The notes under the pieces are model-generated. The model saw only the letters and a program-made list of their open reading frames with translations. It was not told the DNA's origin and searched no databases. 64,000 nt of DNA from a virus, in the IMG/VR virus record IMGVR_UViG_3300020171_000018, positions 21,803 through 85,802 of that record. One strand, written 5' to 3'. Of this stretch, positions 11,321-57,066 are shown in pieces. The position numbers were made by a program, and so were the translations under genes. The number at the start of each line of letters is the position of its first letter. Positions within the stretch are counted from its first letter, which is position 1.

Positions 11321-11833
11321 TTAAGCCACCCTCTTCCGCCAGAGCTGGTAGGTGTATGTCCTGTTCACACCTGCCATTTGCTGTAGCGTGAGCTTGAGGC
11401 CATACTTGGCAGGTTTGGTCGTAATGAATAGAACGAACAGGGTTTGAGCATCCAAGTAGGTCTCCTCCGCATACTTGAGATAGGTTGTAGGACCCGTCAC
11501 GAGGCTCATGTACTGGCGGATGATTAGCGTGTCGCCAGCCTGCATTGGACTCAGGCCAACATAGCCCTCTAAGTACCTGCTGGGGTTGCCTGCCGTCTCG
11601 TCTAGGATGATGTTCTGCTCAAGGCCGTCTGCGACGATGGTTCCCTCGATGGCGGCGTCGAAAGCTTCTATCCTATCTATGCGGGCCTTTCTGGCACCCG
11701 TACCAGCCTCGAAGGTCGCGTCCTCACCCAAGAGGTCCGTCCTGGGTTGACCGGTAAGAGCGGTCAGCGCCCTAGTCGCGTGTCCCCATATCTCACCTAC
11801 GCTTGCGCCTCCTCTAGCCGGAAAGTCAGGCAT
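11321..11833 (-). CDS. Putative minor capsid/vertex protein (beta-sandwich)
   Basis: C-domain paralogous to 11844-12200 and 63307-64000. Confidence 0.55.
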   Translation of the reverse strand: MPDFPARGGASVGEIWGHATRALTALTGQPRTDLLGEDATFEAGTGARKARIDRIEAFDAAIEGTIVADGLEQNIILDETAGNPSRYLEGYVGLSPMQAGDTLIIRQYMSLVTGPTTYLKYAEETYLDAQTLFVLFITTKPAKYGLKLTLQQMAGVNRTYTYQLWRKRVA

Positions 11834-11843
11834 GGCTTACCCC

Positions 11844-12200
11844 TCACATCTCGCTGAAGAACTCGTAATCTACATCAACATCCGGCCCTGCCACCGTCCG
11901 AACCGTGACCTTTAGCCCATAGGTATCCGGGCGCCCCTCGATAAAGACCACCGGGCTGGGCAGGGGTGCCGTATAGGTCTCCTGATGGTACTGTTGCCAA
12001 GCGCCCCCTGGCCTTACTTTCACGTAGAGCGCCACAACAACGGAGCCGCCCGGTGCCAACTTTGACAGGTCTACGTAGCCCGATAGTTTGTGGGGGACGC
12101 CCCCAGATGCCTCAACGAGTGGGGACTCTGCATTGCTGCACAGAACGCTCCCAGAGCCCAACTCGTAAAGTCCCCGCACCCTAACCGTAGTGATTCCCAT
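11844..12200 (-). CDS. Putative minor virion protein (beta-sandwich)
   Basis: GYVDLSKL...ETY...YGLKVT motif shared with neighbour. Confidence 0.55.
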   Translation of the reverse strand: MGITTVRVRGLYELGSGSVLCSNAESPLVEASGGVPHKLSGYVDLSKLAPGGSVVVALYVKVRPGGAWQQYHQETYTAPLPSPVVFIEGRPDTYGLKVTVRTVAGPDVDVDYEFFSEM

Positions 12201-12204
12201 GATT

Positions 12205-12771
12205 CTACCTTCGCCATCCTTCTTGCCCGGGGATGGCCGTTGCGTCCCCCTGCTCGATGGGGGTCTTTCCTTCAATGACGCTCAATCGAATAGCCGCCGT
12301 AGCCCCAGCCACCGCCGTTTGGAAGAACAACCTGTAGATAATCGGGTAGCGAAGGTCCACTCCGTAGCTCTCAGTTGGCAGTACGAAGTGGGCGTACATC
12401 AGAGCGTCCTGATTATTTATAGCCACACCTACATTGTTGGGCCCGTCGTTTATCACATTGAATGAGATGCAGGGTCTGGGCAACTCGAACCGAGTCACGG
12501 CGAAGCCTATGGTGCGCGAGTACCCCTTACTCCCCGTTGGAATCTTGCTCTCTTCCAACCTACGCAATCGGGCAAGCTGAGCGGCAGAGGCGGCCTGCAC
12601 AAGAAACGACATCACATCAGGCCGCATCCGGGCCTCATCCCCACTCAGCACCTCTGACCCCTGCAACCCCTGAGGAGTGGCAAGCGCCGACTCCTTCAGC
12701 AAGCGGGCCAAGTCTGTTCTGTCTAGGTCTGTTCTGTCTTGGTTACTGGGGTTACTGGCGTTTTGCGTCAC
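12205..12771 (-). CDS. Putative virion protein with small jelly-roll-like C-domain
   Basis: FNVINDGPNNVGV beta motif; GGAG RBS. Confidence 0.5.
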   Translation of the reverse strand: MTQNASNPSNQDRTDLDRTDLARLLKESALATPQGLQGSEVLSGDEARMRPDVMSFLVQAASAAQLARLRRLEESKIPTGSKGYSRTIGFAVTRFELPRPCISFNVINDGPNNVGVAINNQDALMYAHFVLPTESYGVDLRYPIIYRLFFQTAVAGATAAIRLSVIEGKTPIEQGDATAIPGQEGWRR

Positions 12772-13072
12772 GGTGTATCTCCACCTCGGTTGGCAGCAGC
12801 GTCACGGGGTCCCACCGAATCTTCCAGACTTCCTTGTTGGTGTACGTGGCAGGGGCAGCAATAGGGGCAGCAACAGGAGCGCTAATGCTGTTGTTGGGGT
12901 TGCGAGAACGCAGCCATACCACTAACCCTATGGCAGCAACTAATCCCACGGCCAGCCACAGGCCAGTGTTGTCACGGTGCTCTTTACGGTTCTCTCCGCT
13001 CTCTCTGCGGGCCAGCCTTCTTGACTTAGTCGCCACGATTAGCCCCCTCCCACTCCTGTTACGGCCCCCCAA
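12752..13072 (-). CDS. Basic single-TM membrane protein
   Basis: Arg-rich N-terminus, TM LWLAVGLVAAIGLVVWL, then RNP. Confidence 0.65.
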   Translation of the reverse strand: MGGRNRSGRGLIVATKSRRLARRESGENRKEHRDNTGLWLAVGLVAAIGLVVWLRSRNPNNSISAPVAAPIAAPATYTNKEVWKIRWDPVTLLPTEVEIHRDAKRQ

Positions 13073-13640
13073 TGGTAGCTAGGGGAGCAACCGTCTCAGG
13101 AGTCAACTTCCCGCCTGGTACGGTAGTCTCCATCCCATACACCCGCCCTTGAATCCAAGTCCTAGCCATAGCGTGATCCAACTCCCCGTCGTTGTCCAAG
13201 TCGTAGTAGGCTATGTCGGCGGGGAGACCCGCTTGACGGGCAAGACTGGCAGCCAGGATCGCCGTATCATCACAGTCTCTCCATTTTGGCACCTGTCCCT
13301 GGGCCAGCATAGAAGCGAACTCATCAGGACTCGTGATGCTCTCCATGCCAACTGGGTCATCAGTGTACCCCACCGTGTCCGATATGTAGGTCTGGATGGC
13401 CTGGGCCGCCTGAGGGGTGCCGGGGTTGGCGCCTGCTTGGGACAGCACCGAGCGGGCAAGGTGGCTCACGGACTCGCTCTGCTCCCCACGGTGCAGGAAC
13501 TCCTGAGAGGCTTGCATGACCTGATTGGCGGAGTCGGGGCTGATTGGGAACTGGACTACCTCGCCAATGCTGCTGCCGATACCTGGCCGCCCCTTGACCC
13601 CAGTAGACCCCAATCCTGACCCTTGGCTCAGTCTCAGCAC
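13059..13640 (-). CDS. Transglutaminase-like (papain-fold) putative cysteine protease
   Basis: YTDDP...DCDD (Cys)...DHA (His)...ETT (acidic) triad pattern. Confidence 0.8.
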   Translation of the reverse strand: MLRLSQGSGLGSTGVKGRPGIGSSIGEVVQFPISPDSANQVMQASQEFLHRGEQSESVSHLARSVLSQAGANPGTPQAAQAIQTYISDTVGYTDDPVGMESITSPDEFASMLAQGQVPKWRDCDDTAILAASLARQAGLPADIAYYDLDNDGELDHAMARTWIQGRVYGMETTVPGGKLTPETVAPLATIGGP

Positions 13641-14436: not shown

Positions 14437-16989
14437 TTACGCCCTTGTGGTCTTGTGGTAACTTGCGTCTCCCTTGAACCCCGTAGTGCCCGTCTTTCGG
14501 TACTCCCCAGACTTCTCGTTGTACCGATACCAGTGGTACAAGCCGCTTTTACGCACGCCAATGAGGCCACTGGGGTCACTATACCACCCCTTCGCCTTAT
14601 CTAGTTCCTTGACGCCTGTGGCACCTGGGTTGCGGAAGATGATGCTCCCGTTGACGTTGTAGAGCTGCGGGGCGGTCTTGAGCTCACCCCTGTTGGCGGC
14701 GTCCAGCTCTTGGAACGGGATAGAGTCGGGGTTCTTCTTCCCGCCCACCCCCTTTGCCCCTTTCACCCCTCGCACCCCCCTAGCCCCCCTGATGTACTCA
14801 TGGAGCGCCCCAGGGTACGCCTCAGGAGCAGCCCTAGACTCAGTGGGCTTGGTCTCAACCGTCCCCTCGGTGTGGACAAGGCCCCCTGGGGTGGTTGTGG
14901 ACTCCAGCACGGACTCAGGAGCGGGGGCATCGGGGAAGTCGGTGATGGAGCTGGCGTCCATCTCCCCAAAAGTGGGGTTGCGCTTGCCCTTGTGGTAGTG
15001 CGGCCCAATGTACCGCTTGCTGCCCTTAGTAAGTTGGTGCCCAATTGTGGCTACGAGGCCCTCTCCTTTTGCATCGTGGTAGTGCCTAGGGCCATGATGG
15101 GTCACTTTCCCGCGCCGAGAAGCATGGGTGTGCCAGTAGCCCTCTGGGTTTTGGGGGTTCTGCAGGGGCGGCTCAATCACCCTCCCTTTATCCCCAAGAG
15201 CTGGCGTCACCAGCGTCGCCAGCTCCTTCTGAGAGGTGTACTCCTCAGGGCCGGGCTGGATTGACACCCCAGCCCCGCAGCCACTGCACCGCCCGACTCC
15301 TACTGACCCAGACTCGAATGGTTGACCACAGGACGGGCATTTTAGCTCTGAAACGATTGACATTGGATTCTCCTTCCTTCTACCATATGTTCCCCCAGAG
15401 TGCCCATACCCGCCACGCTGCTTGTGAGGGGATGGGGCATTGGGGGGTATAAACGAGATTATAGGGGACTCCAAGGCCATCTCAAGGTTCAGGTATGCCA
15501 CTGTGCTACTCCAGCCAGAGTGGGCCTTGGCGAACTCCTTGGCCGCCCAGACCATTCGAGCGTGCCTGCTATCATCTTTACCCGCAAGGGCAGCTCTGGC
15601 AAGGTGATAGAGGTTCACAAGCTCAGCCTGTTCCCTTTTGTTGGCATATCTACTGGGATTCTTGCTCATATCAGCCTTCTCTCTAACAGGGCCTAGCCAC
15701 TCCTGACCCTTGCCCTTCTTCAACCCCAACTCTTTCAGGTACGCAAGGTCTCCTGCTGTGATGCTACCTTTGCCCTTGAAAGTCAACACATACTGCACGG
15801 ACGCCACGGGGCTTGGCCCAAACCACCCCGTAGGCCCAATGACTAGCTGCCCCTGAGCGTCCCACCTATTCGCTCTGAGCGTCCACCCAGGGGACATACG
15901 AGACAGGTCTGGCATATTGGTGGGATTCATGGTGAACAGTGGCAGCATCGCACCCCTCCAGGCACTTGGAACCTTCGGCCTCTTCAGCTTCTCCCCGGTA
16001 TCGCTCTTATAGTAGTGCTCCGCCATCCTGTCGTAGTACGTTTCCAGCTTCTTCAGCTTCTTCCCGTACTTCCGGCGTAGCTCTTCCTGCTCTTTGTAGA
16101 CGGGGAACTGGGCATGACCCATCTCACTCCACTCCAACATGCGCTTCGTCTTGAGCTGGACCTCAACGGGCAGGCCGTTCGACTCAACAAGCAGGTGGTA
16201 GGAGCGGTACAGGCCCTTGGGCTGGGTTATGTAGTCCTCCTCTTCTATCACATTGAACTCGCCACGAATCTTTTTCAGTCCAGCGTACAGGGAGTCCAAG
16301 GTGGAGAATACGACGCGGACGCCCGCTATGTCGGTTAGTGAGGATAGCTCAGTACCCCGCCTAGTCAGCTTCTCCATGATGCTCTCCACGGTCTTTAGCC
16401 GGGATGAGACCTTGCCGGGGAACATGCGCTCCAACTCTGTAGAGACCTGAGATAGGGACTCCCGGTAGCGTGCCTGGTACGCCTCGATGCTTGTGTCACT
16501 GAGGCCATTGGATCCCTCTGGGTTCCCCTTGGGCATCGTCTCAGAGGTGGTCAGCCACATTTTGTGACCCAATCCCAGCTTCTTAATCTCCTTCTGGGCG
16601 TCCCTTAGGCTACCAGCGAACACTAGCTTGCCATCGGAGACTCTGAATATCTTGTAGCTGGTGCTCTTGGGTATGGGGTTCCCGCTTCCTTCCTTGGTCT
16701 TCTCCAACAGTCCCAGAAACGCCTCGACCACTTCAGCCTCTGCCGCCATCTTGGTAGTGGCCCTTCTCGACCCCAGTTTCCTAGAGCCATCCCAGATAGC
16801 CCACTCCCAATCGTTGTGACCGAGCCTCTTCACCGCCGCCGAGTATTCCTGGAGGCCAAGGTAGGTCTCCCTGTCAGGGTGCAGGGCCTCCCATTCGTCA
16901 TGCCCCACAGAGCGCCAGGCTACCTTGTCCCGCATCTCCTGGAGGGCGAGCCGGCGCCTCATCAGCTTGAACTGTGTAGTCAAGGGCAT
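14437..16989 (-). CDS. Modular NP-punctuated protein containing a RelA/SpoT-type alarmone synthetase domain, Zn ribbon and His-rich module
   Basis: RLKTVESIMEKL...DIAGVRV...EEDYI..PK..YRSYH...EVQLKT; 10 Asn-Pro motifs between modules. Confidence 0.85.
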   Translation of the reverse strand: MPLTTQFKLMRRRLALQEMRDKVAWRSVGHDEWEALHPDRETYLGLQEYSAAVKRLGHNDWEWAIWDGSRKLGSRRATTKMAAEAEVVEAFLGLLEKTKEGSGNPIPKSTSYKIFRVSDGKLVFAGSLRDAQKEIKKLGLGHKMWLTTSETMPKGNPEGSNGLSDTSIEAYQARYRESLSQVSTELERMFPGKVSSRLKTVESIMEKLTRRGTELSSLTDIAGVRVVFSTLDSLYAGLKKIRGEFNVIEEEDYITQPKGLYRSYHLLVESNGLPVEVQLKTKRMLEWSEMGHAQFPVYKEQEELRRKYGKKLKKLETYYDRMAEHYYKSDTGEKLKRPKVPSAWRGAMLPLFTMNPTNMPDLSRMSPGWTLRANRWDAQGQLVIGPTGWFGPSPVASVQYVLTFKGKGSITAGDLAYLKELGLKKGKGQEWLGPVREKADMSKNPSRYANKREQAELVNLYHLARAALAGKDDSRHARMVWAAKEFAKAHSGWSSTVAYLNLEMALESPIISFIPPNAPSPHKQRGGYGHSGGTYGRRKENPMSIVSELKCPSCGQPFESGSVGVGRCSGCGAGVSIQPGPEEYTSQKELATLVTPALGDKGRVIEPPLQNPQNPEGYWHTHASRRGKVTHHGPRHYHDAKGEGLVATIGHQLTKGSKRYIGPHYHKGKRNPTFGEMDASSITDFPDAPAPESVLESTTTPGGLVHTEGTVETKPTESRAAPEAYPGALHEYIRGARGVRGVKGAKGVGGKKNPDSIPFQELDAANRGELKTAPQLYNVNGSIIFRNPGATGVKELDKAKGWYSDPSGLIGVRKSGLYHWYRYNEKSGEYRKTGTTGFKGDASYHKTTRA

Positions 16990-16991
16990 AC

Positions 16992-17402
16992 CTACCCCCC
17001 GCCCCCAAGAGTGCCCAGTAGTTCCATCACCTTTGCTCTCCCTCTCCCACCTTGATTCCTGTGCTCCCTCACAATCAACCAGTATAGCTGTCTCCCAAAC
17101 CTGTCCTTGGCTGGCCGGGAGTAGAACCCCTTGCTGGGTCTGTGCGGATACCCCAGACAGTGCGTTAACTCGTGAACCAGCCTCTTTCTGCGTTCATGCA
17201 CCCTTTGCTTGGCCCACTCAGGAGTCACCACAATCAGCTTCTTGGCCGGGACCGCCCAGATGTCTGGGTACTTCCCCCTGTACGTTGGCTCCTCTTGCAA
17301 ATACACCCGCTCCACCCCCATGATGGGGCACGCAACCTTCTCAAGCCAGTCCATGTCGGCCTGGTGAATCAGGACCGCTCCTCTGGCCAACTTGGCGGGC
17401 AT
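16992..17402 (-). CDS. Zincin-like metallopeptidase
   Basis: LVHELTHCLGYPH (HExxHxxGxxH). Confidence 0.7.
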   Translation of the reverse strand: MPAKLARGAVLIHQADMDWLEKVACPIMGVERVYLQEEPTYRGKYPDIWAVPAKKLIVVTPEWAKQRVHERRKRLVHELTHCLGYPHRPSKGFYSRPAKDRFGRQLYWLIVREHRNQGGRGRAKVMELLGTLGGGG

Positions 17403-17615
17403 CTACACTCTCGCCCTCTTAGCCCGCCGTGCCTCATTTATCAAGATAATCCAAGAGTCATTCGGGAGCAGGCCAGGCCCCTCAGCAATCATTAGCTCTC
17501 CCCTTGAGTTGAAATGCAACTTGACGGGCACGAGAGGCATCAGGGTGCCGTGCCGCTTCTCCAAGGCGCGGAGCTCCTGTTTCGAGAAGGAGACCATAAA
17601 CGAGGGGTTACGCAA
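17403..17615 (-). CDS. Small protein beginning MRNP
   Basis: AGGAGGTG RBS. Confidence 0.6.
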   Translation of the reverse strand: MRNPSFMVSFSKQELRALEKRHGTLMPLVPVKLHFNSRGELMIAEGPGLLPNDSWIILINEARRAKRARV

Positions 17616-17625
17616 GATGCACCTC

Positions 17626-19806
17626 CTAGCTCACCATCAGAGTGGCACCACAGTCACACTGGTACACCCCGGGGTCAGGGTTCCCGATTGACCCCTGGCA
17701 TGAGGGGCAGCTCAGAGATGGGTTCCTTCCGGGATTGCTCCTTCTGGGATTACCTGGGTTAGCCTCCACCGTCTTTGCCCCTGCTACCAGACTACTCACC
17801 ACCTCTTTACTCGGTGCCGCCACAAACAGCGGCATGATAACGATGTCCTGCATGACGCTCCCTGAGAACGTCCCGGGGCTGCTCTCGGTAGTCAGACCCA
17901 CTGATATGGTCTCGGTCTCCTTGAACGTCCTGACAACGGTGTCACTGAGGTAGCTTGCGTCAAAGGCTATGTACCGTCTCTTGTCTTGCCCCGTCCAATC
18001 TCCATTGAGAGACGCTGGCACCAGAGCGGCCTTGGGGTCAGAGTACGTGAATACCAGCAGCCTATCTCCGGCTATCCCCACTGTGCTCCAAGGCATGAAC
18101 CCCACCTGTTTGGACTCCTTGTACCTACCAGTAATCAGGCCCCCAGTTTCCGCAAGGGCCGCCACCAGTGCCCCAGCCCTCACATCGAAGCCCCACTCCT
18201 GCCCGGAAGGGATTAGTTGGGGGTAGTTGGGGAACTTGCCTAGTATCCCCTTGAACGATTGCTCCTTATCCCCAACGGCCACAACCAGACCGGGGACATC
18301 GCTGACCTCGGTGCTGATAATGCTGCCTGCCCTGTTCTTGTTCACAAAGGTCTCATAGCTGGATACTGGAACGAAGTCAATCAGGGCCTTGCCACCCTTG
18401 AGTGCCTTTGCAGGTATGCCAGACGCCCACTTTGCCAGCTCCTTAGCGGGGATGTTGGCCGTCCAATCACCCCTCCCCGCAGTCTCTAGGGTCAGTGATG
18501 CGTGGGCCAGCCGGAACCCGTCCGCCGCTGCCAGGTCTAGGAGCTCCCCCTGCTTCTGGATGTTGATGCAGGTAAGAGTGGGCCTTGCTCTGTCGGTAGC
18601 AGCGTACAGGGTTATGCGCTTGATTACGTCCACGAGCAGGTTGGCACTGATTGTTGAGGGGTCACCAGCGGGCTTGCCAATCCTAGACTTGGCTACCTCC
18701 TCAGCCTCCTGAGCAGCTTTGGCCTCAGCAGCCTCCTTCTGCTTCTTGCGCTCGGCGGCCTCCTTGACCTCTTGAATGGCCTGTTTCGCCAAGGGGTGGA
18801 GAGGCTTGACCTCATCCTCTGGGCCCCATCTACCGCCGCTGAACAGGTCGGAAGGCCCACCCAGCACGCCTACCGTGTCATCGCTTTGAGAGACGGGCCC
18901 TACCCCGACCTCCAGACTGTTTGCCTCCTCTAGGACCGGGCTGGGTGGGGGCAATTTTACCAGAACGAACTTCCCCTGCACATTTTGGAACTCCTCACCG
19001 CCTTGGGCCCCCGCAAACATAATGGGGAGAGAGTGCTTTGCTAGACTCTCTTCATGTTCCAGCCAGCTCCTCCAGTGCGGGTCAGCCTGCAACTCCTCCT
19101 TTGCTACAGCCCTAATGTAAGCTACATGGTGGGCTCCGTCAGCCCCCAACCAAGAGGCCATCTCATACCACTGGCCCAGTTTGAGCCCATATTTGTCGGC
19201 CTGCTTTTGGCGTTCCCCCTTGACCCTAGCTAGGGCCTGCCGTGATGCCCACTGGTAGCCGAATAAGGACCGATTGAACTTGCTTGTCTTGACCGCCTCA
19301 CCCAGCCCCACAATCCGGCTAATGGTCCGTCCCACCTTGTTGTTGCCTACAGGCTTGGGAGGGTGCATGGTGTCCATATTGGCCCACCGCACGGCCTCCC
19401 AAGCAGACGGCTCACTATGAACCCCTCGCTCTCTGGTAAGAATCTCTCGTAGCCTCTCGGTGCTAGGCTTGCCCCCGTACCTAGTGGACATTATCACGTA
19501 CCCCTCAGGGCCCTTCACTAGGTAGTAGTCCAGCCGTGGGTCCCCATAGCGCCCAGTAGTGCCGGGTTTGGAGGCGTATAGGACGGGCGTCTCGGTTATC
19601 AGCCCGTCCAAGGCAGCAATAGCCTGTTGCTGGGTGGCCTCAGCATCGGCAACAGCCTTGTCCAGCTTAGCAGCCTCACGGTCATACTCCCCTTGGTCTG
19701 GGGTAGAGGGGGGCATAGTGGTCTCCCCACGGTGGGAAGCCTCTACAGCCCAAGGTTCGCCAGCCTGTACATGCTCCTCAAAGGGCGGATTGCGGGACAT
19801 GCTCAC
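17626..19806 (-). CDS. Modular protein with partial DNA polymerase III beta clamp (domains II-III) and C-terminal Zn ribbon
   Basis: ATDRARPTLTCI, AADGFRLA, GKFPNYPQLIP, IAFDASYL, IMPL motifs; NP motifs only at the termini. Confidence 0.8.
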   Translation of the reverse strand: MSMSRNPPFEEHVQAGEPWAVEASHRGETTMPPSTPDQGEYDREAAKLDKAVADAEATQQQAIAALDGLITETPVLYASKPGTTGRYGDPRLDYYLVKGPEGYVIMSTRYGGKPSTERLREILTRERGVHSEPSAWEAVRWANMDTMHPPKPVGNNKVGRTISRIVGLGEAVKTSKFNRSLFGYQWASRQALARVKGERQKQADKYGLKLGQWYEMASWLGADGAHHVAYIRAVAKEELQADPHWRSWLEHEESLAKHSLPIMFAGAQGGEEFQNVQGKFVLVKLPPPSPVLEEANSLEVGVGPVSQSDDTVGVLGGPSDLFSGGRWGPEDEVKPLHPLAKQAIQEVKEAAERKKQKEAAEAKAAQEAEEVAKSRIGKPAGDPSTISANLLVDVIKRITLYAATDRARPTLTCINIQKQGELLDLAAADGFRLAHASLTLETAGRGDWTANIPAKELAKWASGIPAKALKGGKALIDFVPVSSYETFVNKNRAGSIISTEVSDVPGLVVAVGDKEQSFKGILGKFPNYPQLIPSGQEWGFDVRAGALVAALAETGGLITGRYKESKQVGFMPWSTVGIAGDRLLVFTYSDPKAALVPASLNGDWTGQDKRRYIAFDASYLSDTVVRTFKETETISVGLTTESSPGTFSGSVMQDIVIMPLFVAAPSKEVVSSLVAGAKTVEANPGNPRRSNPGRNPSLSCPSCQGSIGNPDPGVYQCDCGATLMVS

Positions 19807-19819
19807 TCTCCTAGGCAGC

Positions 19820-21211
19820 CTAACTCACTTGGAACTCAGCGCCACACCCGTCGCACCGATACGTGCCAGCGCCCAGGCTGCCCACCCCCTGGTTGCAGCC
19901 TGGGCAGGAAAGGGAGTCTGGGTTCCCTCTTGGTGTCCCTTCGTACTCTCGTATCAATCTGTCCTGAGTAGCGTTGTCGTACCCATGCCACACACCGGCG
20001 GTCACCTGAGCAATCCGCCTCTTGCCGAACTTGGGATACTCAGCCTTGATTCTGGGCAGCATCATGGCCCACCACTTGGCGGGGGGTCTGGTGGACTTCC
20101 CAGGCGCTGAGCGGGGATTCAGGGAAGGGGCACTCCCGCCTTCCCCCTCAACATACCTTTGGGCTACCTTGCGCGGCAGCGTCTCACGCTCTATCTTGGG
20201 TAGGCGCTCACTTACTAGCCGTTGTAGCTCATCCCGACCCTTCTCATTGGTAGGTCTGCCTACCCACATCTGCTCGACGCTGCCCTTGAATGGTAGCTCT
20301 ATTTGGCGCACGTCTGTGAGCCCATATTGGTCTACGAGCCATTGGTCAGGCCCCTCTTTTGTACCAAGATAGCGCCAACCCCTAACCGCCAACTCGGCAA
20401 TTAGCACATGGCGCTCACGGCCAGACCCAAACATCCACAGATTGCCCTCCAGCTTCTTGGTAACTGAGGTAATGCCCCGAAGGGAAGACGGCAGCGGCTT
20501 TCCACGAGGGTTAGTATGGTCAAGGCCAACCTGTTCAGGTCTTAGCCCTGCCTTGGCATAGGCAAAGCATGTCTTGTGGTAGGTGTGCAGCTTCCCCACC
20601 TTCACACCTCCAGCATAGATGGGGCGCGTGCAGAAGAAGCAGGTAGCCTTGCCCCTCTCCTGCTTTCGGGAGCGCCAGGTCCGCTTGGAGACGGCTGAGC
20701 GTTCGGCGTGAGAGAGGGGGTTCATGCAGCACCCTGGGTTCTTTCCACCACAACACCCAGCCCTGACCCCTGGGTTAGCTACTGGTTGGTAGGCGTGCTG
20801 CTCCACCCACTCCATAGCCTTGGCTCTAGCCTTAAACCAGCGCACCTTTGCCTTGCTGGGGGCTATCCAAGCTTTCGCCCTCCACGGCTTACCCTCGTGA
20901 CCCTGGGGGGCATCGGGGAAATAGGCCACACTCCCGTATTCCAGACCGGAGAGGTCACCCCAGAACATGATGCCCTTCTCCTGTCCGGCCCATTGGAGCT
21001 TACTGGGGTTGGACACGGGTTGCGTTACATGCTGCACTACCCCATCCCCGTCCCGCACAATTACGGGCCTCTCCACGGGCCCCTCTCCAACTCCCCTGAC
21101 AACCCCCTTGGTAATGGACTGAGCGCCGGACTGGGTAGTCTCAGGCCCAGGGTGCTCTACCCTGACTGTGGCTGTTGTTTCATTCAGACTGTTCGGATTA
21201 GCCATGTCCAC
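19820..21211 (-). CDS. Modular NP-punctuated basic protein with Zn fingers
   Basis: 8 NP motifs; CFFC...HKTC and terminal CPGC...CDGC. Confidence 0.75.
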   Translation of the reverse strand: MDMANPNSLNETTATVRVEHPGPETTQSGAQSITKGVVRGVGEGPVERPVIVRDGDGVVQHVTQPVSNPSKLQWAGQEKGIMFWGDLSGLEYGSVAYFPDAPQGHEGKPWRAKAWIAPSKAKVRWFKARAKAMEWVEQHAYQPVANPGVRAGCCGGKNPGCCMNPLSHAERSAVSKRTWRSRKQERGKATCFFCTRPIYAGGVKVGKLHTYHKTCFAYAKAGLRPEQVGLDHTNPRGKPLPSSLRGITSVTKKLEGNLWMFGSGRERHVLIAELAVRGWRYLGTKEGPDQWLVDQYGLTDVRQIELPFKGSVEQMWVGRPTNEKGRDELQRLVSERLPKIERETLPRKVAQRYVEGEGGSAPSLNPRSAPGKSTRPPAKWWAMMLPRIKAEYPKFGKRRIAQVTAGVWHGYDNATQDRLIREYEGTPRGNPDSLSCPGCNQGVGSLGAGTYRCDGCGAEFQVS

Positions 21212-21376
21212 GCTCCTTTAGTCCAACTGTTCTAAACACAATCACTCGGTCACACCTCTCACAGTACCGTACCGACCCAAGGCACCTGGCCCACTTCTTA
21301 GCCCTCTCAGCCCCCTTCACTTGGTACACCACTATCTCTCCCCAACGATGATTGCAGGCTGGCCCAGACCCCCCCT

Positions 21377-22042
21377 TCACCCAACCACGCCCCTAGAAGT
21401 CAACTGAGGGTATCGGTCGCCCCCCTTCACCTTGGCTATGAACAGCCCCTTGCCGTGCTCGTCTGTGAATACCCAATACTCGGTGCCGACCTTCCCACTT
21501 CCCAAGTCGCCCACCTCATGCTCCCAAAGGCTGCCAGCCCGTTTGGAGGGCTTCCAAGATTCGTAAACAAAGGAGCGAAGCCTCCCAATTACGATGCCCC
21601 TCTTGGGGTAGTCCTCTATCTCCACCTCTACCAGCTCTTGGGGCTCGGTCTCGTGGAACTCCCGGTACTTCTTGACCAGCTCAGGGGGGAGATTGGATAC
21701 ATCCATTTGGGCCTGAGGGTTCTTCTGCACGTTGTCTCGTGGGTTCCCTTGTACCCCCCTTGGCAGTATCTCTAGCAGGTTGATTTCCGTTCGGTAGTAC
21801 CGTCTCTTGGGGGTTATGACCTCTACTTGACCCGTGAAGGGAATCCACACTCCCTCCCCAGTGCTAAGGCCATGCTCTCCCTTGTTGGTGACTGTGAATA
21901 TCCTCGATGGGGGCATAGTGACCACTGGGTACTGCCCCTCCAACAGGGCAAAGGAGACGTTCTTGACCCTATCCCCCACTCTGACTTTACTAGCTGGAAC
22001 CAACTTCCCACTCACTATGACACCCCTCAAAATACCAGCCAT
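21377..22042 (-). CDS. Two-domain protein joined by an NP-NP linker
   Basis: GNPRDNVQKNP separates an SH3-like part from a YREFH...WEHE domain. Confidence 0.65.
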   Translation of the reverse strand: MAGILRGVIVSGKLVPASKVRVGDRVKNVSFALLEGQYPVVTMPPSRIFTVTNKGEHGLSTGEGVWIPFTGQVEVITPKRRYYRTEINLLEILPRGVQGNPRDNVQKNPQAQMDVSNLPPELVKKYREFHETEPQELVEVEIEDYPKRGIVIGRLRSFVYESWKPSKRAGSLWEHEVGDLGSGKVGTEYWVFTDEHGKGLFIAKVKGGDRYPQLTSRGVVG

Positions 22043-22121
22043 CTTCCCAGTGAAATGCCATCCAAACGCCTCCTCATTGGGTTATAGCCCCCTTCTGGCG
22101 CTCCTGACGCTCCCAAGCCCT

Positions 22122-22670
22122 TTACGCCCACTTGGCATCGAACCCGCTCAGAGCCGCCCCTGACACCACTCTCAGCACTCCCACATCAGTGTCAATCAGC
22201 GTGAACCCTGAGTCATCCAAGAACGCCGCCGCGCCGTAGAGGGTTGTCAACGCACTATCCACCACCCAGATGTAGGCGTCGAAGGTGCGCCCGGCCCAGG
22301 CCGACTCTATGAGCAGCGCCACCGGGGTAGAGAGGGTCTGCTGCACTACGCCGACCGTACCCCTGCTTGGCGTGGTGAATGCGGACACGGTGTACTTCCC
22401 GTCGGCCAGGTTGGCGCCGTCGTTGAAGTCACCTGAGCCCTTCTTCAGCCCGATGAGCACCCAGAACAAGGTGGCCGGGCCCACCCAGTTGTACTGCACG
22501 TCCGTGACTCTCAGGTACTCACCCGGATTCTTGTTCAACGGCAGGGAGCCGGGATTGAGCGCCCCGAGGCCCCGCCCGACCATCCCCACTCGAAACCCGC
22601 TCATCCTGCTCACGTGGTTGCTCATCCGGTGCTTGCTCACTGTTCCCTCGTTGCTCATCCTGATGGCCAT
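22122..22670 (-). CDS. Putative virion protein (basic RMSN leader, two NP motifs, beta domain)
   Basis: AGGAGG RBS; RMS(N/G) three times. Confidence 0.65.
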   Translation of the reverse strand: MAIRMSNEGTVSKHRMSNHVSRMSGFRVGMVGRGLGALNPGSLPLNKNPGEYLRVTDVQYNWVGPATLFWVLIGLKKGSGDFNDGANLADGKYTVSAFTTPSRGTVGVVQQTLSTPVALLIESAWAGRTFDAYIWVVDSALTTLYGAAAFLDDSGFTLIDTDVGVLRVVSGAALSGFDAKWA

Positions 22671-22710
22671 GTCAGCCTCCTGCCAGCTCTGTTAGCTCCA
22701 CCCGACTTTG

Positions 22711-23421
22711 TTAGCTCCACTTCACTGCGATGTTTGATAGGACCCCTTCTGGTGGCGGCGGTGGCGGCGGGGGAGGAGGAGGGGTAGTGCCCTTGCCCCC
22801 CAGCATCAACAGCGCACCAACCCCTACTGCCGCTATACCCAACATCCCGCCCCCGCCCCCCTTTTCTGGGTTGCGTGGGTTGCGTGGGTTGCGCCGTACA
22901 CGGGGAACCACACCCTTCTTCGCCAGGGCCTGGTATGCGATGAACAGCCCCCCACCAATGAGAAGGAGCGGCCCCAGACCAGCGGCTATTCCTCCCCCGA
23001 TGTCTTTCCATGAAGAGCGCGCCAGCTTGAACGTCAACGCCCCAAACAGGGCTAGTATTCCGATGGCAATAGCGATTACAATGATGGCTGGCCAGGCCCC
23101 TATGCCCCCGCTTCTGGACCCCACTCCGTTCTCCGTCACAACCCCGTTCCGGACCGTGCCGCTGGACTCCCTCTCAGGCGCCCCCTCCATGTCCACCGTC
23201 ACCCGATACCCGTCGAATATCGGGGCCGTGTCCTGCTCAATGACGTAGTGGAGGAGCTTCCCCCGGAGTCCCGGAGTCCACCCGGTTCCGGCGTTTATAG
23301 CGGCTGCAATGGTGCCAGAGAGCCCCGGAGTCCCAGAGAACGCCATCACCAACTGACTGGAGGGGCCGTGGTAGCTGTCACCCCGGGGCGTAGTCACCTC
23401 TCTTGATATAGCGTAGGCCAT
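22711..23421 (-). CDS. Multi-TM membrane protein with RRNPRNPRNP and poly-Pro
   Basis: Three hydrophobic segments; GGAGG RBS. Confidence 0.75.
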   Translation of the reverse strand: MAYAISREVTTPRGDSYHGPSSQLVMAFSGTPGLSGTIAAAINAGTGWTPGLRGKLLHYVIEQDTAPIFDGYRVTVDMEGAPERESSGTVRNGVVTENGVGSRSGGIGAWPAIIVIAIAIGILALFGALTFKLARSSWKDIGGGIAAGLGPLLLIGGGLFIAYQALAKKGVVPRVRRNPRNPRNPEKGGGGGMLGIAAVGVGALLMLGGKGTTPPPPPPPPPPPEGVLSNIAVKWS

Positions 23422-23423
23422 GA

Positions 23424-23654
23424 TTACCTCCCTTGACCCGGTTGACCGCGCCTTGGTTGACCGCGCCCCCGGGTGTCATATGGGGCGTTTATGTATCGCT
23501 CGACCTCCACGGCGTCAACATACAGGATTCCCCGTACCTTGACCCCGTGGAGGTCGTTGGCCTTTATCATGCGATAGATGGTGATGAGGGGCTTTCCAAG
23601 CTCCTGAGATACCCTTTTGACCGTCAAGAGAACTAGGGAGCCGTCATCCGCCAC
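23424..23654 (-). CDS. Excisionase-like HTH DNA-binding protein
   Basis: LLTVKRVSQELGKPLITIYRMIKANDLHGVKV. Confidence 0.7.
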   Translation of the reverse strand: MADDGSLVLLTVKRVSQELGKPLITIYRMIKANDLHGVKVRGILYVDAVEVERYINAPYDTRGRGQPRRGQPGQGR

Positions 23655-23727
23655 GTCAACACCACCAATTTCTACAAGTTTTTCAGCTTTTGATACCTAG
23701 AATACTACCCCCTTTATCACGTTGTTG

Positions 23728-24066
23728 TCAAGTGGCCCTCTTAGATGAAGCCAACAGCTCCTTGTTGGTCGGCCCCATACCATCCCCGGTTCGCCGAAGT
23801 GCGTCAAACAACGTTTCAAGCTCGTCCCTGCATCTGGTACACAAGTTGAAGCCTGTACGTGGAGGCTCCGTGCCGGGAGGGTTTGCGCAATGATGCTGGA
23901 ACCTCGTATCTACCCAGGCGCGGTGCCTATCGCAGGTATCCTTCTTGCACATCGCACAGGCGGTACTGGCCTCGTCTGGGAGAGTTGGTTCACACAGGTC
24001 ACAGATATAGATTACCTTGGTTGTCTTCATCAGGAGAAACCTCCTTCGTTGCTCAATGATTCGCAT
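23728..24066 (-). CDS. Zn-finger protein
   Basis: CDLC, CAMC..DTCDRH, LCTRC; similar to 37753-38046. Confidence 0.55.
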   Translation of the reverse strand: MRIIEQRRRFLLMKTTKVIYICDLCEPTLPDEASTACAMCKKDTCDRHRAWVDTRFQHHCANPPGTEPPRTGFNLCTRCRDELETLFDALRRTGDGMGPTNKELLASSKRAT

Positions 24067-24127
24067 ACAGCAACCCCTCCTTACCACACTGCGCCATAAA
24101 GCCCCCGGATTTACCCGTGGGGAGTAG

Positions 24128-24694
24128 TCACCAAGCCCCAGGCAGCTTCCTAAAGGCATTCAACGCCCTGATTCGCATGTTGGGGCCATTGGTCACTGCT
24201 ACTACAGCCACCCTCTCCATTTCTGGGGGCGTGATAAGCACCAACCAGTGGAGCACTATCAGCAACCCCTCAGGCCGAGTGACTCTAGCGGCCTCTCTTG
24301 CCATGATATTGGGTCTGGGGTACGGATACCCCCAGTAGGCGGCCCGACTCTCGTCATATGGCGGGTCGCATATCACTATTCCAAAGAGGCTGTCAGCAAA
24401 GGGCAGGTGGCAGGCATCCGCTAGAACAGTAGGTCTAACAGCCGGGTTCATGTCCACTGACATCCCCTCTTTGACTAGCCCAGAGCAGACGAACAGGACA
24501 GGCTCCTCCCAGCCTATGCGCTCTTTGATGCGCTCAAGAAGCAGGCCAGGAAAGCGTTGGGCATACTTGCCCGTGGCCCTGGGGAGCGCCCACACCTCAG
24601 TCTTACCTATCTGGTGGTACTGTCCAGAGCCCCCAGCCCAGCGATTAGGAGTAGGAGTGGGTTGAGTCACAGCGACGGAAGGCCGCTCACTCAC
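24128..24694 (-). CDS. Minimal amino-DNA methyltransferase-like protein
   Basis: VCSG, VDMNP, DACHLPF, CDPPY; start uncertain. Confidence 0.7.
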   Translation of the reverse strand: MSERPSVAVTQPTPTPNRWAGGSGQYHQIGKTEVWALPRATGKYAQRFPGLLLERIKERIGWEEPVLFVCSGLVKEGMSVDMNPAVRPTVLADACHLPFADSLFGIVICDPPYDESRAAYWGYPYPRPNIMAREAARVTRPEGLLIVLHWLVLITPPEMERVAVVAVTNGPNMRIRALNAFRKLPGAW

Positions 24695-56435: not shown

Positions 56436-56559
56436 TGCTCGAAAGTATCGGACCCAAGACTCAGGACTCAGGGCAGTAGAGCCAAAGCGAAACGACAGAT
56501 AAGCCAGACGCTCGTAAGGCTGCCCCAGTAGAACCATAATCTACTTGGGAGGTGTACGA

Positions 56560-57066
56560 GTGCCTACGGTTACACTTATCAAGGGAAACCCCGCGAACCC
56601 CAGACGCCACAGGCGCCACTACCGCAGGAACCCCGGAGCCCTCGCGGCCGCAACCAGATCCCTACCCGAATTGGGCGATGCCGTTGCGGGCGTGCTGGGC
56701 GCAGGCGTGGTCCTGACCGTCCCCGCGATGGTGATGAAGACCAGCACGGGCTGGACAAGAGTGCTGGTTGGCGGTCTCATTGGCTTGGGCGGTGCCTGGG
56801 CGACACGCCAGTTCGTCAACCCCAAGGCTGGCAATGCATTTGGGCTGGGCGCTGCTGTCATAGTGCTGGGCCAGGCAGTGGGCGTCGCCACCCAGGGCAA
56901 GTGGGGCATCCCGCTCACCCTGACCGTCGTGCCGCCAATGGAAGGCCGACTCTCCGCCCCCACTCCTCAGCCGACACTGATGAGTGGCATGGACAGGAGC
57001 GTGGGTGCCTTCGTGGATACCACATACGGGGGCGAGAACAGCGCCCTGAACCCACCGTTGGTCTAG
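56560..57066 (+). CDS. Virion membrane protein with Arg/His-rich NP-repeat N-terminus
   Basis: GGAGGTG RBS; KGNPANPRRHRRHYRRNP then three hydrophobic segments. Confidence 0.7.
   Translation: MPTVTLIKGNPANPRRHRRHYRRNPGALAAATRSLPELGDAVAGVLGAGVVLTVPAMVMKTSTGWTRVLVGGLIGLGGAWATRQFVNPKAGNAFGLGAAVIVLGQAVGVATQGKWGIPLTLTVVPPMEGRLSAPTPQPTLMSGMDRSVGAFVDTTYGGENSALNPPLV

Follow-up and report, generated by a model that had tools for sequence, protein, structure and literature searches.

Asn-Pro seams as candidate processing sites in polyvalent-type viral proteins

A block of minus-strand genes in the viral genome described here encodes multi-module proteins in which, to judge from sequence comparison, the dipeptide Asn-Pro (NP) is a conserved, directional seam between autonomous, exchangeable modules. 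The explanation that we favour, at a probability somewhat below one half (roughly 0.45), is that polyvalent-type polyproteins are processed at these seams, with a zincin encoded in the block as the prime candidate enzyme.

Polyvalent proteins (Iyer, Burroughs, Anand, de Souza and Aravind 2017; PMC5512222) string disparate effector domains together in one mobile-element polypeptide, and embedded zincin peptidases are predicted to release the domains (PMC5512222). By predicted architecture the block proteins are of this type: the 850-aa protein combines unrelated domains (RelA/SpoT, a Zn ribbon and conserved modules) in one chain, and it is encoded by a virus (IMG/VR record), one of the phage, virus and conjugative-element sources of such proteins. 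Both typically contain RelA/SpoT, RadC/JAB and zincin (MPTase) domains. Unlike in the proteins of PMC5512222, the zincin can here be a separate 136-aa gene, and the modules are often only 30-100 aa long, Zn ribbons and single hydrophobic helices among them. Packaging into the virion and delivery are putative in the present case.

The gene block and its Asn-Pro enrichment

The genome (IMG/VR virus record G000) comprises 85,802 bp, has a 109-bp terminal repeat and a CheckV completeness of 100, and comes from an uncultured virus in groundwater. Coordinates are those of the window, the 64,000-nucleotide stretch of this record that was analysed. The block is part of a long minus-strand gene run, which continues into large proteins without assignment. 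The relevant genes are:

12205-12771, minus strand: ORF with a leader ending in NP (residues 7-8; motif in sequence)
12752-13072, minus strand: ORF with a TM segment, then SRNP (motif in sequence)
13059..13640, minus strand: 193-aa transglutaminase-like (papain-fold) protein (Pfam Transglut_core, E 2e-6)
14437..16989, minus strand: 850-aa polyvalent-type protein, 10 NP seams (Pfam RelA_SpoT, E 1.4e-22)
16992..17402, minus strand: 136-aa predicted stand-alone minimal zincin metallopeptidase (HELTHCLGYPH), 0 NP (101 homologues, AF2 fold)
17403..17615, minus strand: 70-aa putative ORF with M-R-N-P leader (translation)
17626..19806, minus strand: 726-aa clamp-containing protein, 6 NP (Pfam DNA_pol3_beta_2, E 1.3e-9; phrog_947)
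19820..21211, minus strand: 463-aa modular protein, 8 NP (one homologue, P0002)
21377..22042, minus strand: 221-aa protein, 2 NP, at 100 and 108 (C-terminal module homologous to an ORF of L004)
22122..22670, minus strand: 182-aa protein, 2 NP close to the N-terminus (shuffle p 0.02)
22711..23421, minus strand: 236-aa membrane protein, 3 NP, with RRNPRNPRNP between hydrophobic segments (translation)
23728..24159, minus strand: 143-aa Cys-rich protein, 2 NP, lying beyond the part covered by the first-pass annotation
56545..57066, plus strand: 173-aa membrane protein, 5 NP against 0.6 expected (shuffle p <0.0005)

In eight minus-strand ORFs (14437-24159) NP occurs 33 times against 5.6 expected (z 11.6), so the proposed enrichment survives correction for composition. 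In shuffling tests the 850- and 463-aa proteins each reach p <0.0005 and the 726-aa protein p 0.0015. The first-pass annotation had counted 32 NP in seven proteins (10, 1, 6, 8, 2, 2 and 3), which we reproduce, its protein with a single NP fitting the 70-aa ORF; recounting likewise returned 10 of 24 Asn followed by Pro in the 850-aa protein, no NP in the 878-aa PolA polymerase and one in the 830-aa protein. Within the block ORFs neither the reversed dipeptide PN (3 vs 5.6 expected) nor other X-Pro pairs are enriched (GP 17 vs 21.6, SP 7 vs 13, DP 6 vs 7.5). The motif also recurs, as had been noticed, in the membrane protein of 56545-57066, whose neighbour is a putative capsid gene; three of the five NP of this protein frame an Arg/His-rich arm.

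The nucleotide pattern AAYCC falls 33 times in frame 0 of the block, 2 times in frame 1 and 6 times in frame 2; the corresponding counts for the remaining genome are 58, 45 and 44. Since codon choice at the seams matches background usage (chi-square p 0.20), selection acts on the peptide, in agreement with the earlier suggestion. The same data bear on the reading that NP reflects 2A-type translational StopGo, or else a DNA-level motif or compositional artefact, which we find hardly credible. While 2A peptides end in NPG|P and 9 of the 38 seams here read NPG, NPGP itself occurs at 0/38 of them and at 1/190 in the family, and the upstream context D(V/I)ExNPGP is missing; a DNA motif or artefact sits poorly with an AAYCC excess confined to frame 0, background codon usage and an unenriched PN. 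The NPGP counts, reading frame and codon usage essentially refute these readings.

Modules, seams and relatives

The NP dipeptides of the 850-aa protein lie at residues 104, 156, 355, 444, 541, 611, 614, 671, 753 and 787. Unknown N-terminal modules are followed by RelA/SpoT (157-355), two conserved modules (356-444 and 445-541), a Zn-ribbon module (542-611), a His/Tyr-rich module and C-terminal modules. The RelA/SpoT synthetase model (PF04607) matches residues 196-302 with 80.5 bits (cut-off 27); the module is bracketed by the NP at 156 and 355, as first annotated, and N355-P356 are the sole invariant columns of a seven-sequence alignment (A5). The 726-aa protein consists of an MSMSRNP leader, a 677-aa NP-free unit (an unknown N-domain and beta-clamp domains; residues 7-683, flanked by NP as had been stated), an NP run (four copies) and a Zn ribbon that itself contains one more; its 65% identical relative P0108 retains the C-terminal seams. 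An MDMANP leader opens the 463-aa protein, which continues with a Cys-rich module (165-234), module B (366-430) and a C-terminal Zn ribbon, and the 221-aa protein has an N-terminal module, its two seams and a conserved C-terminal module ending in RGVVG. An NP does precede each Zn ribbon (3/3), and the two reported NP runs, NPGNPRRSNPGRNP and RRNPRNPRNP, are both present.

Cutting at N|P yields segments that align end to end with segments of the few relatives, in which the neighbours differ: residues 356-444 of the 850-aa protein with P0005 374-461, residues 445-541 and 542-611 with P0004 92-189 and 190-259, and residues 366-430 of the 463-aa protein with P0002 149-212. Among 49 proteins, 255 of 972 homologous segment pairs match over their full length, where random cuts give 6-17, which upholds the placement of NP at module boundaries. 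HSP ends fall ≤5 residues from an NP in 31% of cases (10.7% at random), and at aligned positions of ≤60% identity a seam NP is kept as NP in 43%, other Asn in 15%. P0002, the single homologue of the 463-aa protein among 5.8e9 proteins, has two NP-bounded modules in common with it and unrelated sequence between them; modules of the 463-aa protein recur in P0106 and P0071. The C-terminal module of the 221-aa protein has a homologue in the L004 ORF 2299-2796 (E 1e-12), where a Zn ribbon, an N-terminal module unlike that of the 221-aa protein, and three NP precede it. Some modules also have genes of their own (the zincin; module B in L003; the RelA module in the provirus Pro-Nvie1, between portal and protease/MCP), and relatives add zincin, RadC/JAB, ATLF-like and M78-like modules. 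Module swapping in relatives had been proposed as a check, and modules are indeed gained, lost and exchanged exactly at NP.

NP might instead be a structural seam that is left uncleaved, the proteins acting as intact multi-domain chains. Asn would then cap the end of a helix (C-cap) or form a turn, and Pro would open a helix at N1; the two residues would insulate modules that fold alone and make the junctions recombination-tolerant. The AF2 model of the 850-aa protein, which is of low confidence, does place all ten of its NP either in coil or where a helix begins, no residues beyond [K/R/G]-N-P are conserved around the seams, and some polyvalent proteins, such as N4 vRNAP, are reportedly packaged unprocessed (PMC5512222). 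Gly-Pro, Ser-Pro and Asp-Pro could cap equally well, yet they are not enriched; NP also stands in leaders of ≤8 residues (with which four ORFs of this genome start) and before short C-terminal tails, where there are no modules to insulate, and it occurs in tandem runs. NP also bounds single hydrophobic helices that lie between cytoplasmic-type enzyme modules. We consider the uncleaved seam unlikely, if a serious contender.

Alternatively, NP with its flanking basic residues could be a docking motif for a capsid, internal-membrane or packaging component, tagging modules or proteins for the virion without cleavage. Basic NP runs adjoin TM segments in the membrane proteins at 22711-23421 and 56545-57066, avidity would rise with tandem repeats, and the block lies within the minus-strand run leading into large unassigned proteins. 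A docking tag has no need, however, to mark every module junction or to match homology breakpoints, and neither a receptor candidate nor virion genes were found in this genome; we hold docking to be improbable.

The 136-aa zincin

The ORF at 16992-17402 carries the motif HExxHxxGxxH and has 101 relatives at E<1e-3 among metagenome cluster representatives. In 51 sequences D47, H77, E78 and H81 are invariant, and for G84 and H87 conservation is 90% or higher. The protein has no match in Pfam or PHROG, and its family none in GenBank phages or PLSDB plasmids. The AF2 model (pLDDT 92.1, pTM 0.86) comprises a helix, three strands, an HExxH helix and a C-terminal helix (H14-28, E34-37, E48-51, E56-59, H68-82, H101-116), with the motif on helix 68-82. 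As modelled, with the core fold and with HExxH plus a third metal ligand, the ORF is a minimal zincin.

Its nearest folds are abylysin, selecase, IrrE, ArdC, Wss1 and MMPs, at modest scores (Wss1: Z 7.6, rmsd 4.0 Å, 106 residues aligned; best Foldseek E 7e-3). The structural neighbours listed are nearly all zincins, the one exception being the YbeY RNase (Z 7.0), whose motif HxxxHxxGxxH lacks the Glu invariant in the zincin family. A core of ~105-130 aa with this order of helices and strands is shared by the block zincin and the minimal zincins (proabylysin, projannalysin, selecase), Wss1/SprT, IrrE and ArdC-type MPTases, to which it has 13-21% identity (Z 7.0-7.6); minigluzincins use the gluzincin Glu as third ligand, whereas the block zincin is metzincin-like. 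The nearest folds (Wss1, IrrE, ArdC; Z ≤7.6) are also compatible with an effector or a YbeY-like non-peptidase role.

Stand-alone zincin relatives (n=57) contain NP at background level (11 vs 9.3 expected); those fused to other modules (n=43) contain 145 against 28.9 expected, and 18 PN, a link between zincin and NP that is partly built in, because the fused proteins were found through the zincin. In the fused forms NP stands 3-10 residues past the last zincin helix and directly ahead of the first. In this genome and in L004 a zincin is encoded along with NP-rich proteins that contain no zincin; less directly, a Chloroflexota MAG holds P0006, P0004, P0005 and P0108, but on separate contigs, and P0064 and P0002 probably lie on one contig, both contigs being 23858 bp.

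Possible processing and what it would mean

In the reading that we favour, each seam, a [K/R/G]-N-P in a stretch left as coil by the low-confidence model, is a predicted processing site. The polyproteins would be split by a peptidase of the virus itself, releasing the RelA/SpoT synthetase, the clamp unit, the Zn ribbons and small basic or membrane peptides, and short M-x(1-6)-N-P leaders would be trimmed as well; the prime candidate is the 136-aa zincin, which would work in trans in this genome and in cis in the fused proteins. That cutting occurs is something we infer, as are the enzyme, the bond (X|N, N|P or P|X) and the timing (assembly, virion or host cell). Several observations count against processing. 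The zincin of P0005 belongs to a different clade, and a single enzyme family might therefore fail to account for every seam; the remaining proteome shows no avoidance of NP (58 observed vs 39.7 expected), though a promiscuous NP-cutter might select against it; and some domain borders have no NP, such as that between N-domain and clamp in the 726-aa protein. To our knowledge few proteases accept Pro at P1', a further point against processing.

The interpretation first put forward is partly supported: it keeps a peptide-level, directional boundary motif and gains a candidate enzyme in the block, but loses its analogy with FlhB/YscU and reovirus mu1. There the scissile bond is Asn-Pro in a conserved, strained context (the NPTH loop); here NPTH is found at 0/38 seams, and at 0/190 in the family, the residues after NP vary, and the seams lie in variable stretches, coil in the low-confidence model. 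Autocleavage of this type is rejected. The seams might also be cut by another agent: the transglutaminase-like cysteine protease (13059-13640), a host protease, or slow spontaneous succinimide cleavage. The transglutaminase-like gene lies near the block, with a similar gene beside NP proteins and zincin in L004 (E 4e-4), and Asn-Pro is prone to backbone cleavage, as in the NPTH of FlhB/YscU. Such a module was not found in the 49 family proteins, however, NPTH occurs at 0/228 seams, which are variable linkers rather than strained loops, and spontaneous cleavage at unstrained Asn-Pro is reportedly slow; another cutter is in our estimate quite improbable.

For zincins that read Asn-Pro there is precedent, which we count in favour of processing: site-2 protease (S2P) needs NP, located in TM1, in SREBP-2 (PMC7981912), and PPEP-1 (M34) cuts VNP|PVP (doi 10.1101/2024.03.15.585006). 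Both are zinc metallopeptidases that recognise Asn-Pro; S2P cuts inside the membrane helix, away from NP, and the block zincin, of a ~110-aa minimal fold family, is neither M34 nor M50. Pro-Pro endopeptidase specificity was rejected: its substrates require NP|P, and NPP is found at 3/38 seams here and 8/190 in the family.

Dipeptide-type sites are known from large dsDNA viruses (ASFV pS273R, GG|X; poxvirus I7, AG|X; adenovirus protease), where a minimal site is likewise repeated at structural or core polyprotein junctions and a protease of the virus recognises it. The viruses in question infect eukaryotes and their proteases are Ulp1/adenain-like cysteine enzymes; in the present case the putative site is Asn-Pro, the candidate a zincin and the host prokaryotic. 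It is conceivable, though on balance doubtful, that a widespread, hitherto undescribed set of uncultured prokaryotic viruses (groundwater, marine, sludge) generally uses Asn-Pro as a two-residue mark for cutting, read by a dedicated family of ~110-aa zincins of new specificity. Effector, DNA-binding and membrane-peptide cassettes could then be put together, exchanged and set free from polyproteins. If so, prokaryotic viruses would possess an equivalent of the GG|X and AG|X polyprotein codes known from eukaryotic giant viruses.

Our search of the accessible literature found no account of such an Asn-Pro seam system, in agreement with the first-pass annotation; the general architecture is already known as that of polyvalent proteins (PMC5512222), and a term search of that paper found no mention of Asn-Pro or another junction motif.

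Even without cutting, NP is a practical domain delimiter in these multi-module viral proteins. Should the seams be cut, a new protease specificity, for Asn-Pro, would reside in a zincin scaffold that ranks among the smallest known and could be useful for tag removal, and a simple parsing rule would resolve large dark multi-module viral proteins into functional units. Prokaryotic DNA viruses would then be making polyproteins and dividing them by a defined site code, which would explain the free exchange of unrelated effector cassettes.

Asn-Pro in the minus-strand block and its setting

We re-derived the counts of the Asn-Pro dipeptide (NP) in the block of minus-strand ORFs at 14437-24159. The per-protein numbers of the first-pass annotation were reproduced, the protein credited there with a single NP fitting the 70-aa ORF.

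ORFs of the NP-rich block (window positions)
14437-16989, minus strand: 850-aa protein, NP at 10 of its 24 Asn (1.44 NP expected)
16992-17402, minus strand: 136-aa zincin ORF, 0 NP
17403-17615, minus strand: 70-aa ORF, begins M-R-N-P
17626-19806, minus strand: 726-aa protein, 6 NP (1.28 expected)
19820-21211, minus strand: 463-aa protein, 8 NP (1.06 expected)
21377-22042, minus strand: 221-aa protein, 2 NP
22122-22670, minus strand: 182-aa protein, 2 NP
22711-23421, minus strand: 236-aa protein, 3 NP
23728-24159, minus strand: 143-aa ORF

After composition correction, the whole block, including the 143-aa ORF, holds 33 NP versus 5.6 expected (z 11.6), and NP is by far its most over-represented dipeptide. 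PN, with the two residues in the opposite order, shows no enrichment (3 versus 5.6 expected), nor do DP, SP and GP. The nucleotide string AAYCC occurs 33 times in frame in the block and 2 and 6 times in the other frames, as against 58/45/44 in the rest of the genome, and the codons at NP seams, that is, at module boundaries, match the genome's usage. Since PN is flat, AAYCC is biased to one frame and the seam codons are genome-like, the signal is directional and lies, as had been proposed, at the level of the peptide; a DNA-level motif or a composition artefact is rejected on the frame specificity of AAYCC and the background codon usage. Other long proteins are at expectation (PolA 0, methylase 1, 830-aa protein 1), which agrees with the near-absence originally reported for PolA and the 830-aa protein. 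Outside N-P itself the consensus is weak: position -1 favours K/R/G and -2 K/S, with small or polar residues downstream. The motif also recurs beyond the block, including, as first noticed, in the protein at 56545-57066.

NP outside the block (window positions)
56545-57066: 5 NP
472-750: motif present
12205-12771 and 12752-13072: NP as a leader or juxta-membrane motif

Two NP-bounded modules, at window 15000-15200 (residues ~615-671 of the 850-aa protein) and at residues 423-476 of its metagenomic homologue P0004, are basic and rich in His and Tyr, with HYH, HHH and GPRHYH motifs and an enrichment of the dipeptide YH (z 4.2); they could be metal- or nucleic-acid-binding peptides.

The source contig is a single 85,802-bp IMG/VR virus record with a 109-bp direct terminal repeat, rated complete, and groundwater metagenomes of two studies contain near-identical DNA. 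The block belongs to a long run of minus-strand genes; on one side of it lie replication genes (PolA fused to UDG, a methylase, a DinG-like helicase) and on the other large unassigned proteins of 578 and 830 aa. Terminase_6N and HK97 capsid HMMs found no match in this genome, PHROG and Pfam yielded almost nothing on the candidate structural genes, and no RNA holder is listed for the window stretch. The sole PHROG structural hint in the genome is a match to the C-terminus of a virion structural protein (L001:102-821, E 9e-9). A neighbouring pair of minus-strand ORFs (170 and 143 aa; window 11321-12275) has similar beta-rich C-terminal segments (...YGLK(L/V)T(L/V)...); judged by eye only, they look like paralogues, and they may be small structural proteins. 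A similarity of ORF 12205-12771 to beta-rich ORFs of the outside locus L003 gained no support from BLASTP.

NP as a boundary between exchangeable modules

The block proteins have very few relatives. The 463-aa protein has a single homologue (P0002) among 5.8 billion proteins, and scans of viral contigs turned up no relative of the 463-aa protein, the 726-aa protein, the metagenomic homologue P0106 or PolA. Exactly two stretches are common to the 463-aa protein and P0002, each NP-bounded in both, with unrelated sequence between them. P0004 and P0005 from a Chloroflexota MAG match the 850-aa protein over its C-terminal half, and P0108 from the same MAG is 65% identical to the 726-aa protein and retains its C-terminal seams. 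Divided between N and P, homologous pieces align from the first to the last residue (89/88, 97/98, 70/70 and 65/64 residues), while the neighbours of matching pieces have other partners or none. Module B of the 463-aa protein (residues 366-430) is also a stand-alone gene of ~95 aa in L003, an unrelated 46%-GC metagenome contig, and another outside locus, L004, repeats the 221-aa protein's C-terminal module, there preceded by three NP and an N-terminal module of another kind. N355 and P356 are the sole invariant columns when seven proteins are aligned on the 850-aa protein.

Across 49 proteins, 31% of internal BLAST HSP ends come no more than 5 residues from an NP, versus 10.7% for random sites (maximum 15.7% in 500 trials) and at most 12.6% for twelve other dipeptides roughly similar to NP in frequency (120-139 occurrences versus 190). 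Cutting at NP gives 255 end-to-end homologous segment pairs in these proteins, random cuts 6-17. At ≤60% identity, NP is kept at 43% of aligned seam positions, compared with 15% for other Asn. The placement of NP at module borders was borne out by P0002, P0004 and P0005, whose pieces swap partners there. An AlphaFold2 model of the whole 850-aa protein (7-row alignment) places each of the ten NP either in coil or where a helix starts, weak evidence only at a mean pLDDT of 43.7 with just the RelA part moderately confident; this is too poor for domain mapping.

Were NP a passive linker, these patterns would be hard to explain. Asn is strictly preferred before Pro, over Gly, Ser or Asp; NP stands in N-terminal leaders of a few residues (MSMSRNP, MDMANP, MRNP), ahead of short C-terminal tails and in tandem runs; and single-helix hydrophobic modules sit between cytoplasmic-type enzymes.

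P0003, on a 61,457-bp contig, is a 97%-identical 765-aa version of the 850-aa protein that departs from it at residue ~737, within the Gly-rich GARGVRGVKGAKG stretch, and stops early; it looks like a frameshift variant lacking the last two NP-bounded modules. The Chloroflexota MAG proteins (locus tags Q8O76_; P0004, P0005, P0006 and P0108) are 54-87% identical to block proteins and lie on short contigs of 1-4 kb, which hints either at a related virus binned with its host or at a Chloroflexota host of the virus.

A minimal zincin and its association with NP

The 136-aa ORF at 16992-17402, which lies between the genes of the 726-aa and 850-aa proteins, encodes the motif HELTHCLGYPH. Searched exhaustively with HMMER, 1.84 billion cluster representatives yielded 101 relatives at E<1e-3, with the pattern ...PDIW...VT.EW..Q...ERRKRLvHE..H..G..H; four positions do not vary (D47, H77, E78, H81) and two hardly vary (G84, H87). 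The AlphaFold2 model of the ORF product built from the family alignment (pLDDT 92.1) has the canonical minimal zincin topology. Foldseek neighbours include proabylysin, selecase, IrrE and ArdC, and VIA-align neighbours Wss1 (Z 7.6), selecase (7.4), abylysin (7.0) and MMPs. Zincins make up nearly all of the structural neighbours listed, although RNase YbeY also scores 7.0; because these scores are modest, membership of the fold rests on topology and the invariant motif. Pfam and PHROG have no model for the family, tblastn against GenBank phages and PLSDB plasmids gave no match, and the pattern ERRKRLVH found no relative among IMG/VR viral contigs. A scan of GTDB genomes returned a single zincin locus, L004.

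L004:708-5566, Firmicutes MAG contig CALMFM010000223.1 (GC 42%): distant element with the repeated gene set, comprising a transglutaminase-like protein, a TM protein, a Zn-ribbon/NP protein with the 221-aa C-terminal module, a 364-aa NP protein and the zincin

This set suggests a module conserved across very different hosts.

The 57 short stand-alone zincin relatives contain NP at background (11 versus 9.3 expected), whereas the 43 fused relatives contain 145 NP versus 28.9 expected, with PN at 18; one 727-aa fusion has 15 versus 2.2. In the fusions, NP lies a few residues past the last zincin helix and, where sequence precedes the domain, directly before the first. The attached modules recur across fusions and are NP-bounded.

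Modules attached to the zincin in fused relatives
the same RelA/SpoT module, with a ...LPLFxxNP tail
modules A and B of the 463-aa protein
Zn ribbons; single hydrophobic helices
a second HEIGH-type zincin; an ATLF-like domain; RadC/JAB

The presence of the zincin in these fusions is by construction, since they were found through it. The zincin and NP-rich non-zincin proteins also co-occur in the window genome and on L004; the Chloroflexota MAG has both, but on separate contigs. From identical size and a shared JGI/IMG source only, we infer that P0064 and P0002 are co-located on one 23,858-bp contig. P0005 bears a different zincin.

Proposed seam processing and comparison with polyvalent proteins

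On the simplest reading, the seams would be processing sites and the zincin the processing enzyme. We put the probability that NP seams are cut at roughly 45%; that this zincin does the cutting is somewhat unlikely. Processing by the zincin would fit a published prediction, in which the parts of polyvalent proteins are freed by zincin domains (PMC5512222), and also two known zincins that need Asn-Pro to recognise their substrates, namely PPEP-1 (doi 10.1101/2024.03.15.585006) and S2P acting on SREBP-2 (PMC7981912). A zincin cut with Asn at P1' and Pro at P2' is as plausible as one between N and P. The transglutaminase-like protein at 13059-13640 is a second candidate protease: it has a counterpart in L004, but a check of the 49 family proteins found none with such a module.

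The best cultured-record match of the RelA module is L005:5813-6445 in the archaeal, tailed Nitrososphaera provirus Pro-Nvie1, a stand-alone 210-aa homologue between the portal and protease/MCP genes that shares the C-terminal Y-Y-x-x-D-x-G-E-K...P tail, without NP. Its position hints at virion packaging or delivery of the NP proteins, and is the sole pointer in that direction.

The parallel with polyvalent proteins drawn in the first-pass annotation holds, in that the NP proteins have the same architecture; what PMC5512222 does not describe is the junction code, a minimal zincin encoded in trans and cassettes of so small a size. Full-text literature searches likewise found no description of these, matching the earlier statement that none was known. 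What is new here is a family-wide statistical link of NP to one defined zincin family, which provides a concrete, testable candidate enzyme-substrate pair.
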